A DNA stretch of 64,000 nucleotides, taken from contig JBGPGO010000006.1 in the NCBI GenBank assembly GCA_041483895.1, positions 64,001-128,000 on the forward strand. Direction: 5' to 3'. The notes under the pieces are model-generated. The model searched no databases and was not told the DNA's origin. It saw nothing but the letters and a program-made list of their open reading frames with translations. Below, one piece after another: positions 8,297-61,779 of this stretch; position 1 is the first letter of the stretch, and the number at the start of each line of letters is the position of its first letter. The translations under genes and the position numbers were made by a program. Source of the stretch: Fimbriimonadia bacterium (GTDB lineage Bacteria; Armatimonadota; Fimbriimonadia; Fimbriimonadales; JABRVX01).

Positions 8297-8326
8297 ATAA
8301 GGTGCCGGCCAGGAGGAAAGGCCGAT

Positions 8327-8385
8327 GTGTTGGGGTTCTCGCCTTGCAATTCCCTTCCGATCGCTGACCCCAAAGACCCCAACAC
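8327..8385. repeat. ~60-nt hairpin of the RAYT-associated family
   Basis: GTGTTGGGGTTCTCG...CCAAAGACCCCAACAC, same architecture as the units flanking the RAYT. Confidence 0.8.
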
Positions 8386-23631: not shown

Positions 23632-23800
23632 TTGTAGCCGCAATTCCTCGTTCCAAGGACCTTGCGAATCACAGATTCCAAGAATTGCGTTAACCCGCAG
23701 GAAGTGCCGCGACGGTGGGTCCGCAATGTTTCTGCCCTTGCGCGCGGTTCTTGGGATCGGCATTCCGGAAGGATATCGGAGCGAGGAACCGCGGCTACAA
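23632..23800. repeat. inverted pair of GTAG-capped hairpins (REPIN-like)
   Basis: TTGTAGCCGCAATTCCTCG...CAAGAATTGCG and CGCGGTTCTTGG...CGAGGAACCGCGGCTACAA. Confidence 0.75.
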
Positions 23801-47302: not shown

Positions 47303-47505
47303 CTGTGTTTGGGTCTTTGGATTTGAGTAATTGGTGAGTGGTCGGCGGGCGAGGACCCGAACACAGCGGGGTTGCTTTCGTGTTTGGGTCTTGGTTGCTG
47401 GCGGGTGATGAGTGGTTGGAGATAGTGAACCCAAACACATCGAGGACATATCGGACGAATAGGACATATTGGTCGTATAGGTCGTATAGGTCCTATAAGT
47501 CCTAT
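47303..47505. repeat. two RAYT-family hairpins followed by 9-nt tandem repeats
   Basis: Hairpins at 47303-47366 and 47380-47438; 9-mers AGGACATAT / GGTCGTATA at 47443-47505. Confidence 0.8.
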
Positions 47506-56443: not shown

Positions 56444-56573
56444 ATCGGACCGATCAGTCCGATCAGTCCGATCAGTCCGATTTCCAAGAACCACCAAGCT
56501 CCGATGTGTCGGGGTTCTCTCTTAGCAATATCCTTCCAACCGCCAACCCCGAAGACTCCGACACATCGGAGCT
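56444..56573. repeat. 9-nt tandem repeats plus a RAYT-family hairpin
   Basis: (GATCAGTCC)n at 56444-56481; AGCTCCGATGTGTCGGGG...CTCCGACACATCGGAGCT at 56497-56573. Confidence 0.8.
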
Positions 56574-56621: not shown

Positions 56622-58403
56622 ATGGAACGGGCGCTCAAACGGACACACGATTGCGGACAATTGCGGGCCGAGCACATAGACCAGACGGTGGTCGTCAACG
56701 GCTGGGTGGACCGCATCCGCGACCACGGGGAGCTAATTTTCATCAACCTCCGCGACCGCACCGGCGTCATCCAAATTGTAACCAACGCCACGATGTCCGG
56801 CGTGTCCGAGCTGCGGTCTGAGTTTGTGTTGTCCGTCCGCGGCCCCATCCGGCACAGAGCGGAAGGGGCGGAAAACCCGAACATGCCCACCGGCCAGGTG
56901 GAGCTGGATGCCCATGCGGTCGTGGTGCTGAACACCTGCAAGACCCTTCCCTTCCCCGTTTCCGACGAACGCCAGATGGAGTCGGTGAACGAGGAGCTGC
57001 GCGTCAAGTACCGATACATCGACTTGCGGCGGCCCACGATGTACAACAAGCTGGACCTGCGGCACAAGGCGGTCAAGCTGATCCGCGACTTCCTATGTGC
57101 GCGCGATTTCTTGGAGGTCGAGACGCCGATCATGACCAAGGCTACGCCGGAGGGAGCGCGCGATTACGTGGTCCCCTATCGCCTCCAGCCGGGCAAGTTC
57201 TATGCGCTGCCGCAGTCGCCGCAACAGTATAAGCAGCTTTTGATGGTGGGCGGCGTGGAGCGGTATTTCCAGATTGCCCGTTGCTTCCGGGACGAGGCGC
57301 AACGCGCGGACCGTCAGCCGGAATTCACCCAGCTCGACCTGGAGATGTCGTTCATCGAGCAGGAGGATATTTTGGTCCTGATGGAAGAGCTGACGACCAC
57401 GCTCATTCGCGAACTGTGCCCGAAGCAGATGCCAACGCCCTGGCCGCGGCTTTCGTACCGAGACTCGATGGCGCGGTTTGGCACGGACAAGCCCGACCTT
57501 CGATTTGGCCTGGAATTGTGCGAGATTGGGGACATGTTCGGGAACACGGAGTTCAATGCGTTTCGCTCTGTGCTGGATTCGGGGGGGATTATCAAGGCGG
57601 TTCGGTATCCGGGCGGCGCATCGCTCAGCCGAAAAGATACCGATGCGCTCGCCGAATTCTGCAAGCAGTTTGGGGCGAAGGGGATGGCGCATTTCAACTA
57701 CACTGCCGAAGGGTTGGCGGGAGGCATTGCCAAGTTCGTGCCGGAGAGCGTTGCGGCGGAGGTCCAACGCCGGATGGGTTGCGAAACCAGCGACATGGTG
57801 TGCGTCATCGCCGACACAGAGTTGGTCGCGAACGAGGTCTTGGCGCGGCTGCGAAACGAGATCGGCGTGCGGACCGGCCTCGCCGATCCCAACGTCCTGA
57901 GCTTCTGCTGGGTCCTGGACTTCCCGTTGGTTCTTTGGAACGAGGAAGAGAAACGGTGGGATTCTTCGCACCATCCGTTCACCATGCCGTTCGAGGAGGA
58001 CCTGCCGCTGCTGGAGACCGATCCGGGCAATGTGCGGGCACAGTGCTACGACGTGGTGTGCAACGGAGTGGAGTGGGCGAGCGGGTCCATCCGAATCCAT
58101 CGCACCGACATCCAGTCGCGGGTCTTCGACCTTTTGGGTGTGGACAAGGCCACGCAACGCAGCCAGTTTGGGCATATCTTGGATGCGTTCGAGTATGGGG
58201 CGCCGCCGCATGGCGGGATAGCTCCGGGGATCGACCGGCTAATCATGTTCATGCTGGGCGAGGACAACATTCGCGAAGTGATGGCGTTCCCAAAGATCGG
58301 CGGCGGGTACGACCCGATGATGGACAGTCCTGCCGAGATCCCGCAGCAGAGCTGGGAAGAACTTGGATTGGCGCTGAGGCCGGTGAACGAAAAGAACATC
58401 TGA
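56622..58403 (+). CDS. aspS: aspartate--tRNA ligase (likely non-discriminating type)
   Basis: RTHDCG, RDHG, LPQSPQ, FRDE and PPHGGIAPGIDR. Confidence 0.97.
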   Translation: MERALKRTHDCGQLRAEHIDQTVVVNGWVDRIRDHGELIFINLRDRTGVIQIVTNATMSGVSELRSEFVLSVRGPIRHRAEGAENPNMPTGQVELDAHAVVVLNTCKTLPFPVSDERQMESVNEELRVKYRYIDLRRPTMYNKLDLRHKAVKLIRDFLCARDFLEVETPIMTKATPEGARDYVVPYRLQPGKFYALPQSPQQYKQLLMVGGVERYFQIARCFRDEAQRADRQPEFTQLDLEMSFIEQEDILVLMEELTTTLIRELCPKQMPTPWPRLSYRDSMARFGTDKPDLRFGLELCEIGDMFGNTEFNAFRSVLDSGGIIKAVRYPGGASLSRKDTDALAEFCKQFGAKGMAHFNYTAEGLAGGIAKFVPESVAAEVQRRMGCETSDMVCVIADTELVANEVLARLRNEIGVRTGLADPNVLSFCWVLDFPLVLWNEEEKRWDSSHHPFTMPFEEDLPLLETDPGNVRAQCYDVVCNGVEWASGSIRIHRTDIQSRVFDLLGVDKATQRSQFGHILDAFEYGAPPHGGIAPGIDRLIMFMLGEDNIREVMAFPKIGGGYDPMMDSPAEIPQQSWEELGLALRPVNEKNI

Positions 58404-58422
58404 TCCCGACTTATTCTGTGAA

Positions 58423-58890
58423 ATGCACATTCTGAGACGTTATTCACTGCCGCCTCGAGTTGTGATACCCGGGCTGATCATTATCGGCATCGGGACGCTC
58501 TACTTCGGCAGCACATGCTACTACCCAATATCTCCGTCAACAATTTGTCAATCGATTCTGCGTCATTATTCGATTGCTACCAGGATGTACGCAGACGATT
58601 TTGATGGACTGATTCCGGCTCACCTTACCGTCACGGTGGGAGATCAGAAGTGGCGCCGGCACTTGGGAGCGTACGTAATTGGATGGGAATGCTGTCCGCT
58701 TCTGGAGCCTACTCAGATCGGATACATCGCGAACTATGAATCGTTTGGAAGAAAGCTGAGCGATCTGAAGCAGAATAGCTGGCTTTTTGCAGACAGCGAT
58801 GCCAGGCATAACGGACTATTCATGTACGTCCAAGTCGACGGGGCAGAGCGCAGAGGCACAACTCCTGGGGTCCGAACCCGTCCCTATTGA
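58423..58890 (+). CDS. divergent DUF1559/H-X9-DG family protein lacking the FTLIE motif
   Basis: Hydrophobic N-terminus, CQSILRHYSIATRMYADD and H-NGLFMYVQV-DG. Confidence 0.6.
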   Translation: MHILRRYSLPPRVVIPGLIIIGIGTLYFGSTCYYPISPSTICQSILRHYSIATRMYADDFDGLIPAHLTVTVGDQKWRRHLGAYVIGWECCPLLEPTQIGYIANYESFGRKLSDLKQNSWLFADSDARHNGLFMYVQVDGAERRGTTPGVRTRPY

Positions 58891-58930
58891 ACTGATTGAC
58901 AGGCACTGAAGGACCGGCAGGAGTCGTGTT

Positions 58931-59163
58931 GTGTCGGGGTCCTCGTCTGACGACTACCTCACAATTGCCACAACCTCAGACCCCGACACGAAAACAATGT
59001 GGCGGGTCTTTGGAGTTGCCAATCGCTCGGATATCGGCATGCGAGGACCCTGCCACAACGTTTTCCATCTCGCTCTTTTCCCTTTCAGCGCAAATATCGT
59101 TGTTGTGTCGGGGTCCTCGTCTGTCAACTACCTGCCAATTACCACAACCTAAGACCCCGACAC
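58931..59163. repeat. three ~60-nt hairpins (A-B-A) upstream of the RAYT
   Basis: Units at 58931-58989, 58998-59057 and 59105-59163. Confidence 0.92.
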
Positions 59164-59199
59164 GGAAGGAACCAACCCACGGGCGAATAATTCAATACC

Positions 59200-59739
59200 A
59201 TGCCCGGATACAAAATGGTTCAGGAAGGCGCAGCCTACTTCATCACTTCGACAATCGTAGAGTGGCTACCGGTCTTTATCGAAGAGCACGCGATCCTGAT
59301 CCTGGCGGATACGTTCAAGACCTATATCAAGAAGTACGGTTTGAGAATTGCCGCCTACGTCATCATGCCGACTCACCTGCACCTTATCGTATACGATGCA
59401 TCGATGGACATCGACAGGCTGCGGCGAACGATTTCGAATTGGCGTCGCCATTCCGGCAAAGTTCTGTCCAGATATGTGGATCAGCACCTAGACCCTTCCT
59501 TCGGAGCCACGCTCCGTGTCGGCGTTGGCGATGATCGGATCCGGAAGTTTTGGAGTGCAGGATTTCATCCGGTTGCGATCATGAGCCGAGAGTTCCTTGA
59601 GCAGAAGGCCGAATACATGCACAACAATCCCGTCCGAAGAGGCCTAGCGGATGAGCCTTCCGACTGGCCCAATTCGTCGGCCGCGTTCTACGAGCATGGT
59701 GAGATTGGATTATTGCCCGTGAGTCCACTGGAGCTCTGA
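59200..59739 (+). mobile_element. REP-associated tyrosine transposase (RAYT, IS200-like Y1 HUH enzyme)
   Basis: YFITST, AYVIMPTHLHLI (HUH motif), KFW, YMHNNPVRRGL (catalytic Tyr) and WPNSSA; flanked by hairpins on both sides. Confidence 0.9.
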
Positions 59740-59741
59740 CC

Positions 59742-60122
59742 GGCTGTATCGGGGTCTTTGGGTGTCGGTGATTGACATGTTGCTGCCCGGCGAGGACCCC
59801 GATACAGCCTGGCCCTCTCATGTGGCGGGTCTTTGGAGTTGCCAATCGCTCGGATATCGGCATGCGAGGACCCTGCCACAACTTTTCTCCGTGTGGCGGG
59901 TCTTTGGAGTTGCCAATCGCTCGGGTATCGGCATTCGAGGACCCTGCCACAACTTTTCTTTTCACCCCTGCCCGATATCGGCGTTGTGTTGGGGTCCTCG
60001 TCTGTCAACTACCTGCCAATTACCACAACCTAAGACCCCGACACGGCATGGATGGCGTCACCTGTGGCGGGTCTTTGGAGTTGCCAATCGCTCGGATATC
60101 GGCATGCGAGGACCCTGCCACA
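59742..60122. repeat. five ~60-nt hairpins (C-B-B-A-B) downstream of the RAYT
   Basis: Units at 59742-59809, 59821-59880, 59892-59951, 59986-60044 and 60063-60122. Confidence 0.92.
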
Positions 60123-60166
60123 ACGTCGAACAAGGAGGAGTCCTGACCGGGCGCGAACACTCCCGT

Positions 60167-61561
60167 ATGTCACATAACATACGACTCGACTTCCTCGGTG
60201 CTGCGGGGACAGTTACCGGGTCACGACACCTAGTCACCGTCGACGGCAAGCGATATCTGTTTGACTGCGGGCTGTTTCAGGGAAGGAAAGAGATACGGGA
60301 TTTGAACTGGAAGCCGTTTCCCGTGGAACCGGCCAGCATCGAGGCGGTCGTGGTCACCCACGCGCACATCGACCATATCGGCAACCTGCCGAAGCTGGTG
60401 AAAGACGGCTACAAGGGTCCGATCTACTCCACACCGGCGACGGCGGCGATCTCCGCTCTTTCGCTGCCGGACACCGCCCATCTGCAAGAGGAAGAGGCGC
60501 GATTTCACAACAAGCGGGGATCATCGAGCCACGTTCCGGCCTTGCCGCTGTATGGCCCCGGGGATGCCGAAACGGCCCTGCGCCTGTTCGAGCGGAAACC
60601 GTACGAGCAGTGGCACGCCCTTGGCAACGGCCTCACATGGCGATACCATACCGCCGGTCATATTTTGGGCGCGGCCTTCATCGAACTGGCGCTGCCGACC
60701 GGTGAGATCATCTTGTTTGGCGGAGATTTGGGCCGAAACGGGATGCCGATCATCCGCGACCCGATGCACATGGAATATGCCGACTACCTGTACATAGAAT
60801 CGACCTACGGCGACCGATTGCATCCCAACAAGGACGATATCCCCGGCGAGCTTGCGGCCGTCGTCAAACGCACGTGTGACAGGGGCGGAGTGATGCTGAT
60901 CCCCGCTTTCGCCATCGGCAGATCGCAAGAGATCCTCTACTTCCTACACGATCTCATCCATCAAGGGACCATCCCGGATCTGCCGATCTATTTGGACAGT
61001 CCGATGGCTGTCGATGCCACGCGAATCCATATCGACTTCGCCGAAGAACACGATTTGGAAATGTCGAAACTGATGAGCGAAGAGAACCCGCTTGCCGGAC
61101 ACAACATTCGCTACACCCGCAGCAGCGAGGAGTCGAAAAAGCTGAACAATCTGCGGGAACCGGCCATTATCATCAGCTCGAGCGGCATGTGCAACGGCGG
61201 CCGCATTCTGCATCATCTCCTCAATCGTCTCGATGACGCGAAGAACACGGTACTGTTCGTCGGCTTCCAGGCGGAAGGCACTTTGGGCAGACGGCTTATC
61301 GATGGGGAGGAACGGGTCCGGATCTATGGCCAGGAGGTGGCGGTGAAGGCCGAGATCGCGCGGATCGATGCCTTGTCGGCGCACGCGGACTACGAAGAGA
61401 TGCTGGAGTGGCTGTCCTATTTCAAGAAGCCGCCGAAGATGACGTTCATCGTGCACGGGGAGCCGCCGGCCGCGGCGTCGCTGATGGGGAAGGTGAAGGC
61501 TAAGTTCGGCTGGCCCTGTACGATCCCGTATCTGGGGGATCATTTCGACGTGCCTGCTTGA
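60167..61561 (+). CDS. MBL-fold beta-CASP ribonuclease
   Basis: LGAAGTVTGS, THAHIDH, AGHILG, ESTYG, PAFAIGR, SGMCNGGR, SAHAD and VHGE. Confidence 0.93.
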   Translation: MSHNIRLDFLGAAGTVTGSRHLVTVDGKRYLFDCGLFQGRKEIRDLNWKPFPVEPASIEAVVVTHAHIDHIGNLPKLVKDGYKGPIYSTPATAAISALSLPDTAHLQEEEARFHNKRGSSSHVPALPLYGPGDAETALRLFERKPYEQWHALGNGLTWRYHTAGHILGAAFIELALPTGEIILFGGDLGRNGMPIIRDPMHMEYADYLYIESTYGDRLHPNKDDIPGELAAVVKRTCDRGGVMLIPAFAIGRSQEILYFLHDLIHQGTIPDLPIYLDSPMAVDATRIHIDFAEEHDLEMSKLMSEENPLAGHNIRYTRSSEESKKLNNLREPAIIISSSGMCNGGRILHHLLNRLDDAKNTVLFVGFQAEGTLGRRLIDGEERVRIYGQEVAVKAEIARIDALSAHADYEEMLEWLSYFKKPPKMTFIVHGEPPAAASLMGKVKAKFGWPCTIPYLGDHFDVPA

Positions 61562-61563
61562 TG

Positions 61564-61779
61564 GTGTTGGGGTCTAGGGTAGTCGGCAATTGGTCAGATC
61601 CGGCCGGCGAGGACCCCAACACAACGCCTTTGCGGAACCCCAACACATCGGGGTTGCCAGGTGTTGGGGTCTGCGGTGGTCGGCAATTGGTCAGATCCGG
61701 CCGGCGAGGACCCCAACACATCGCCTTTGGTGGACCCCAACACAGCGGAGATATCCCTTCAGAGTCGTACTGTGAAGGG
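61564..61779. repeat. two RAYT-family hairpins, half-sites and a CCCTTC palindrome
   Basis: Hairpins at 61564-61622 and 61661-61719; extra ACCCCAACAC half-sites; palindrome at 61755-61779. Confidence 0.85.

Follow-up and report, generated by a model that had tools for sequence, protein, structure and literature searches.

The origin, diversification and spread of REPs are still an open question, and the genome studied here offers a natural experiment on it. Within one enzyme clade, short-loop REPs elsewhere can be set against long-loop REPs at the present locus, together with a paralogue of the local RAYT in the same genome (46% identity) that has the short form and an unrelated RAYT whose REP has the same loop, a contrast that lets one probe what a subclass 2.6 enzyme reads and whether REPs can carry cargo. 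The window, that is, the whole 64,000-nt stretch of Fimbriimonadia bacterium DNA that was analysed, holds a RAYT gene nested in eight hairpins of about 60 nt, which a preliminary description took for a distinct, undescribed RAYT-REP system. Is this a new system or a variant of a known one, and where did its long loop come from?

The enzyme itself can be placed with some precision. Its gene follows aspS (56622-58403) and a small ORF and precedes a gene for a beta-CASP metallo-beta-lactamase nuclease (60167-61561). The reading frame is uninterrupted, with H59-L-H61, Y139 and NP in place and zero stops, and the protein scores 94.5 bits against NCBIfam NF047646 (cut-off, 80 bits), so that the earlier claim of an intact HUH/Y1 enzyme holds; Pfam Y1_Tnp gave no match to it. 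An alignment of 20 homologues shows no change at H59, H61 and W118 and hardly any at Y139, N143 and P144. The AlphaFold (AF2) model (pLDDT 91) has E. coli TnpA-REP (4ER8) as its best Foldseek match (E 7e-8, TM 0.57), and a profile search returned the same protein as the sole solved relative; on this predicted structure, the window ORF is an intact RAYT with the TnpA-REP fold. Subclass 2.6 (Bertels Group 5) is listed with a median of 179 aa, NH[LIV]H, WQ, YIH[QN]NP, an SS tail and a 21-aa insertion between alphaC and beta4 (PMC6006769). The window RAYT has 179 aa, THLH, YMHNNP, the SS tail and an insertion of ~21 residues before the conserved Trp, where the model has an extra helix at 99-107 and the His-to-Trp distance is 59 residues (38 in the RAYT of contig C3); it departs from the consensus in T for N before HLH and in WS for WQ. 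By these features, which are those of the published table of Quentin et al. rather than the authors' profiles, its sequence is subclass-2.6-like. An IS200/IS605 element, with Y-x-x-x-Q, a near-identical multicopy gene and single subterminal hairpins, is ruled out by YMHNNP and by the identity of 46% to the nearest in-genome paralogue (contig C12), one of eight RAYTs in a genome with at least five REP families. As a side observation, 28 of 64 homologue loci (L048-L127) have a -10-like box that directly precedes the start codon (control, 1/64), and the window RAYT has AATAAT 8 nt before its ATG, without a Shine-Dalgarno sequence (59184-59202), which suggests that RAYT mRNAs may be leaderless.

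The hairpins follow one another in the order A+ B- A+ [RAYT+] C- B- B- A+ B- (Table 1), all eight as first described. B has the 28-nt insert already reported, and three of its copies are the same throughout while the fourth has two base differences; the three A copies run in the opposite orientation, as had been said, around an insert that measures 32 nt instead of ~30 nt and with a right-hand core that reads CCT[CA]AGA instead of C(A/C)AAGA. Because each unit starts with a 3-nt unpaired cap that the preliminary description omitted, the array bounds widen from 58931-60122 to 58928-60124. Fold z-scores are -2.9 to -4.3 in six of the seven units folded and -1.3 in A3, the unit with a G-T pair. 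Duplication or conversion within the array, of recent date, would account for the near-identity of the B copies and of A2 and A3. Two public runs that may include the source sample have contigs spanning 58384-59590 (X2) and 59174-59913 (X4) with zero differences, and none of the contig pieces listed bridges 59913-60097. Contig joints fall either in the nuclease gene, with short sides and likely from other organisms, or at a tandem pair near 61562-61723, and no joint shows the loss of a unit within the array; on the side open to checking, the array is no assembly artefact. Two neighbouring frames deserve mention. A 599-codon open frame (59762-61561) crosses B-B-A-B into the nuclease gene, whose start is likely 60167, an N-terminal repeat-coded extension or read-through being possible; and between aspS and the array lies a 155-codon ORF (58423-58890) with a hydrophobic N-terminus and zero Pfam or NCBIfam matches.

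Table 1. Features of the RAYT locus and related repeats in the window (positions in the window)
Feature	Position	Strand	Remarks
Dispersed copy	8324..8385	+	
Inverted doublet of the GTAG-capped long-loop family	23634..23798	.	Contig C6 87634 + and 87798 -
Dispersed copy and weak neighbour	47305..47441	-	Copy 47305-47367; neighbour 47380-47441 (28 bits)
Degenerate dispersed copy	56503..56564	+	Between gyrA and aspS
REP A1, long loop	58928..58989	+	Cap GTTG, 11-bp stem, 37-nt loop
REP B1, long loop	58999..59059	-	Cap GTTG, 10-bp stem, one bulged A
REP A2, long loop	59102..59163	+	36 nt upstream of RAYT start
RAYT / TnpA-REP gene, 179 aa, subclass-2.6-like	59200..59739	+	HUH H59/H61, catalytic Y139 (by motif)
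REP C, long loop	59746..59808	-	Cap GCTG, 38-nt loop; opposite in orientation to A2; 6 nt beyond RAYT stop
REP B2, long loop	59822..59882	-	
REP B3, long loop	59893..59953	-	2 substitutions relative to other B copies
REP A3, long loop	59983..60044	+	One G-T stem pair; loop identical to A2
REP B4, long loop	60064..60124	-	
Two further tandem copies	61564..61722	-	61564-61625 and 61661-61722; after the beta-CASP nuclease gene

Although presented earlier as separate types, A, B and C all fall into a single dispersed family with about 180 copies in the genome. A strict architecture search gave 91 matches, compared to 0, 0 and 1 in three Markov-simulated genomes; a bulge-tolerant search gave 140 matches in 95 clusters, one match (contig C33) being false and dropped from later tests; and a loose search gave 185, compared to 3 in the reversed genome. 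The family is thus no product of chance, and its count is set by search stringency between 139 and 185. Read on the C/A-rich strand, the unit consists of an unpaired G-[A/T/C]-T, an 11-bp stem (10 bp in B) that starts with G and ends in GGTC/GACC, and a loop of 36-38 nt. The repeats, called non-canonical in the preliminary description, do have a cap, G[ATC]TG, which resembles the GCTG/GATG-type feet of subclass 2.6: position 1, absent from the search pattern, is G in 42 of 42 non-redundant copies, and among 90 copies GATG occurs 53 times, GTTG 24, GCTG 12 and GATT once, T3 and G4 having been part of the search pattern. No sequence is conserved 3' of the stem in the non-redundant copies; since conservation ends at the 3' end of the stem, the cap is a one-sided tetranucleotide. 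In a 25-copy alignment, five of the 11 stem pairs changed on both sides (17 cells; 0/500 shuffles as high), and percent pairing as such is circular, pairing having been a search criterion. The substrate had been proposed to be defined by structure; the stem does covary, yet five of the 11 pairs and the cap are invariant, so that sequence is kept as well, and the proposal is not supported. Three known hairpin classes were rejected for this family, namely GTAG-capped REPs (5' GT[AG]G) by the cap G[ATC]TG, CGTC-capped REPs (terminal CGTC, 8-9-bp stem, 4-5-nt loop), and the double-foot REPs of subclass 2.4 (5' cap plus 3' complement) by the lack of conservation 3' of the stem.

The family is densest at the RAYT locus, where eight copies lie within 1.2 kb (the best cluster elsewhere has five), and zero copies lie beside the other seven RAYTs of the genome; on this distribution, the hairpins are most likely the window RAYT's own REPs. 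The layout is that of a REPtron, in which inverted REPs lie on both sides of a RAYT and recur as dispersed copies across the genome. The spread is old, since none of 4,481 dispersed pairs shares at least 90% loop identity (16 share at least 80%). Among 50 related dispersed pairs, the flanks show no sharp boundary beyond the stem, the 5' flanks being somewhat more similar than the 3' flanks. Some copies lie in frame inside real genes, among them two ABC ATPases, a YegS/DAG-kinase-like gene and a DnaE-type polymerase (contigs C2 16259-16969, C16 2552-3706, C16 50347-51246 and C8 64748-69256; L185-L187, L189). All nine copies in six Pfam-confirmed genes are on the sense strand and in one common frame, which yields a DVLGSS...DPNT-like peptide, four of them being securely internal and five possibly preceding the true start; the same in-gene sites also gather other repeat families. 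The genome is altogether rich in repeats, with three short-loop REP families (~155, 168 and 40 pattern matches, palindromes possibly counting on both strands) besides two long-loop families.

What sets the window family apart is its loop. As claimed at the outset, it is unusually long, 36-38 nt compared to 3-4 nt in the REPs of homologous enzymes. This length recurs in 180 of 185 copies in a search that allowed only 34-39 nt, and the insert measures 31-33 nt in 91 of 91 copies with a search window of 18-44 nt. The loops have a mean identity of 44% (35% at the centre) and are mutually homologous, with an alignment score of 16.4 compared to 8.9 for shuffles and a common loose consensus; a CRISPR-like array that captures unrelated spacers was rejected on this homology. 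Neither covariation nor a hidden helix was found inside the loop, which folds no better than shuffles and less well than genomic 37-mers (-2.1 compared to -3.4 kcal/mol). It is C/A-rich on the capped strand in 160 of 185 copies and has two partly conserved boxes, TGCCGA-like and then CCGAC..CCAA, with GCCGA in 30/87 and 46/108 non-redundant loops. The tight length and the two boxes are more than a pure passenger would need. Rfam gave no credible match (one at E 0.85, under threshold), and no terminator-like site was found.

Relatives of the enzyme indicate how such a loop could have arisen. A single-protein scan of GTDB contigs gave zero relatives; a narrower alignment gave 532, of which the best 80 loci (39-48% identity) were analysed. 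In 67 of these 80 loci there is a GGTC/GACC hairpin whose loop does not exceed 6 nt, and in 64 it bears a G[ACT]T[GC] cap, the loop being 3-4 nt in 423 of 425 such hairpin-strand matches, and the long-loop pattern of the window was found in 0 of the 80. The flanks of homologues, to which the preliminary description had looked for support, thus share a similar cap and stem and lack the 60-nt architecture; an outcome that it had named as refuting has in part come about, and its claim of a distinct system is too strong. In agreement with this, the short REPs of the homologues are picked up by a covariance model built on the long unit, which matches them at cap and stem and has 4 nt where the window family has 37. 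In a quick tree of 74 distinct proteins (one short and five duplicate sequences left out), the window RAYT, on a long branch, groups at support 85 with the C12 paralogue and P0002, within a clade supported at 98 that also holds the homologue loci; the REP of the C12 paralogue has a GATG cap and a 4-nt loop (155 pattern matches). Since homologues carry the same cap and stem with short loops, cap and stem are inherited in the clade, and the long loop is likely derived, a local addition in this lineage.

Searches further afield did not turn up the long loop. The exact DNA pattern was found in 0 of 400 other genomes of the phylum and in 0 viral contigs; in 185,579 species genomes it gave three single matches where ~8 were expected, two of which were rejected for want of a matching stem; the third (L130), also set aside, combines a wobble stem with a G-rich loop and is alone in the 500 nt read. 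A loop-only pattern, insensitive in that it finds 2 sites in its own genome, matched 0 of 227 other genomes of the order, and the covariance model found none in 120 related genomes with 44 candidates scored per genome. 'Long' pairing in 37 homologue loci was mostly pairing between neighbouring short REPs; filtering left seven loci, of which five have inverted tail doublets and two, L053 (1424-1478) and L057 (~170-240), single insertions of 27 and 43 nt in the loop of a short-loop REP, unrelated to the window loop. Loop expansion thus happens sporadically in the clade of the window RAYT. That the loop derives from the inner arm and tail hairpin of the homologues looked significant by dinucleotide shuffles, but column permutation, the fairer test, gave no clear support (19/500 as high), and this origin was not accepted. 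Two further observations concern the homologues themselves: 40 of the 80 loci (L048-L127) have a composite REP, in which a small second hairpin (GACC-GAAG/GCAG-GTC) follows the main one a few bases downstream and was not found by term search in Table S1 of Quentin et al. (PMC6006769), and P0098, P0101 and P0002 have extensions that resemble translated REP DNA.

The loop recurs in a second REP family of the same genome. The RAYTs of contigs C3 and C20, at 23% identity to the window RAYT, are flanked by REPs with a GT[AG]G foot and an 8-bp stem, of which 146 copies are long (53-61 nt, with a loop mostly of 34-36 nt) and 16 short, compared to two control matches. A fixed-position test of loop homology between the families failed (left half below shuffles, right half marginal) because of a 2-nt offset between their loops; gapped alignment gives 11.2 compared to 6.4 +/- 0.9, with 0/500 column permutations as high. 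A matrix trained only on window-family loops has 11 of its 30 top genome matches in the GTAG family, which makes up 0.1% of the genome, and most of the others are worn copies of either family. Loop similarity is 12.3 between families and 16.1 and 15.6 within them; for 26 of 116 GTAG-family loops the top-scoring partner is a window-family loop, the window B loop is among the closest cross-family matches, and many GTAG copies share the stem top GGGTC/GACCC with the window family. In eight other genomes of the phylum, relatives of the C3 RAYT are accompanied by short-loop GTAG hairpins at nine of nine loci (judged by eye), and in two genomes this cap and stem enclose a 5-nt loop, TTCTC; a viral scan gave zero relatives of this RAYT. 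What is new here, judged from these alignments, is a homologous loop in the REP families of RAYTs that are 23% identical, the relatives of both families being short-looped. Among open-access texts, no paper was found on the window family or on a loop common to the REP families of unrelated RAYTs. Sequence exchange is the likely route by which the loop came to be common to both, and there is a weak hint that it may have begun in the GTAG family and then crossed over. Separately, L001, L002 and L005 (contigs C21, C27 and C6) have RAYT paralogues 81-91% identical, with a hairpin at each end and different neighbourhoods; this gene looks to have moved recently, in a manner more IS-like than that of a domesticated RAYT.

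Taken together, we consider it probable that the window RAYT, set between inverted copies of a capped hairpin (~180 in the genome), binds cap and stem and spreads the repeat, and that the 37-nt loop is a passenger added in this lineage. By analogy with the TnpA-REP enzymes of E. coli, Stenotrophomonas and Marinomonas, the enzyme would bind only the capped strand, in single-stranded form, and its HUH/metal and Tyr139 chemistry would cut and rejoin nearby DNA, thereby spreading the repeat. The cap would select the cut dinucleotide, CA if T3-G4 is the guide, as for Marinomonas, and such guiding would leave cap position 2 free. Judged from this genome, the loop would have arisen once and moved between the two families by recombination or template switching at the common stem top, after which the dispersed copies would have drifted by substitution with their length kept; most simply, it would be tolerated as a passenger, as the E. 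coli loop is. It could instead be a working part that offers the RAYT or a host protein a further binding site or a ruler, adopted by both families as an aid to spread or to the host. We find this distinctly unlikely, even though it would explain why length is kept in both families, why the same core occurs in ~330 copies served by such divergent enzymes, why long copies exceed short ones in the GTAG family and why the capped strand is C/A-rich; the similar loop length of long REPs in Cyanothece (PMC6006769) and the need of the Stenotrophomonas and Marinomonas enzymes for some loop bases (PMC8266576) point the same way. The boxes, however, match in part only, the loop lacks covariation and is absent from the 120 related genomes and the best 80 of 532 homologue loci, and scarce indels alone could preserve its length. 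Bolder still is the idea that the loop is a transferable module, a single-stranded cassette with a function of its own, which passed from the REPs of one RAYT to those of another, unrelated one, took the place of both short-loop forms and reached ~330 copies; this is unlikely in our view.

Two other explanations dispense with an added loop or with an active enzyme. If the unit were a worn REPIN, the loop would be the spacer and relic arms of two inverted REPs with decayed inner arms. Conserved arms around a variable middle are what defines a REPIN (bioRxiv 10.1101/2021.07.10.451892), central deletion of a REP dimer can yield long forms (PMC6006769), and in B weak pairing is conceivable between the 5' arm and the first bases of the loop. 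Still, the unit has a single cap at one end with nothing conserved 3' of its stem, its arms alone are not palindromic, and the loop bears a weak likeness at most to the inner arm and tail of the homologues. GTAG-family units, moreover, themselves pair into inverted doublets (162-170 nt in 21 of 28 cases), so that a unit of ~56-62 nt acts as a REP and not as a REPIN, and a REPIN origin is very improbable. A scarcely credible alternative is that the repeats are kept for a role in RNA, as transcript stabilisers, terminators or small RNAs, next to a RAYT that no longer acts on them. It draws on the genomic setting, with 80 of 95 clusters intergenic on the calls of a crude gene caller, convergent genes on either side in 20 of the 73 intergenic clusters that are fully flanked compared to 240 of 1,662 background gaps, and a beta-CASP ribonuclease gene after the array. 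Against it, the copies favour neither strand with respect to the genes beside them (14 sense, 21 antisense), the stem changes are Watson-Crick on both sides, with G-U type in 0 of 275 cells, terminator-like sites and credible Rfam matches are lacking, and the densest cluster lies at an intact RAYT.

If the loop is a mere passenger, the locus adds one more REP family, plus evidence of sequence exchange among families. If the cassette reading were true, REPs would be modular carriers, with cap and stem as the address and the loop as cargo, and a RAYT could serve to move a chosen short sequence.

How does the locus compare with described systems? Like TnpA-Y1 subclass 2.6, its enzyme has H-L-H, Y-x-H-N-N-P, the SS tail and a helical insertion of ~21 aa before Trp, and like the 'atypical' REPs listed there its repeats lack GT[AG]G, bear a G-N-T-G-type cap and are dispersed; the table rows of that subclass, however, give loops of 3-13 nt rather than 36-38 nt (PMC6006769). 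The REP sequence of the window family, with its GGTC/GACC stem top, is absent from Table S1 of that study under a term search of the whole table (PMC6006769), and the literature available to us yielded no subclass 2.6 biochemistry. Described substrates had been taken to be 20-40 nt long with short loops, yet the same table lists REPs of 59-64 nt with 35-39-nt loops for the Cyanothece subclass 2.4 RAYTs ACK65071.1 and ACU99956.1, as table rows with no discussion of them as a loop class found in the text (PMC6006769). These share with the window family a 9-12-bp stem, a G-poor unpaired loop and several variants around one RAYT, but are GTAG-capped, sometimes at both ends, belong to another RAYT subclass and show no evident sequence relation (PMC6006769). 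REPINs and BIMEs likewise have conserved ends, a variable middle and tandem and inverted clusters, whereas the ends of a window unit are half-stems with one cap and not whole palindromic REPs (bioRxiv 10.1101/2021.07.10.451892); a single unit as two complete inverted REPs was rejected, and it is only pairs of units that make inverted doublets.

As in GTAG and CGTC repeat families, there are complementary stem variants and several REP-RAYT families per genome, and as in the intragenic REPs of Di Nocera, in-frame copies lie within genes, error-prone polymerases included; loops in those families measure 2-20 bp (GTAG) and 4-5 bp (CGTC), and the window cap is neither (PMC3733652). The E. coli REPtron enzyme (4ER8) has the HUH/Y1 fold and is the best match in sequence and fold, although W94 alone is kept among its GTAG-contact residues, with Q95, E100, H101 and R104 differing. 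As in E. coli, Stenotrophomonas and Marinomonas group 3, the gene lies between inverted capped hairpins with the 5' cap as the likely guide (PMC8266576); cap-guided cutting in the studied systems is underlain by T2-G4 and A3-G4 pairing schemes, and the loops there are 3-4 nt (PMC8266576). Judged against these systems, the locus has the layout of a real REPtron and is a variant of a known repeat system, and the loop common to two of its genome's REP families is the point worth following.
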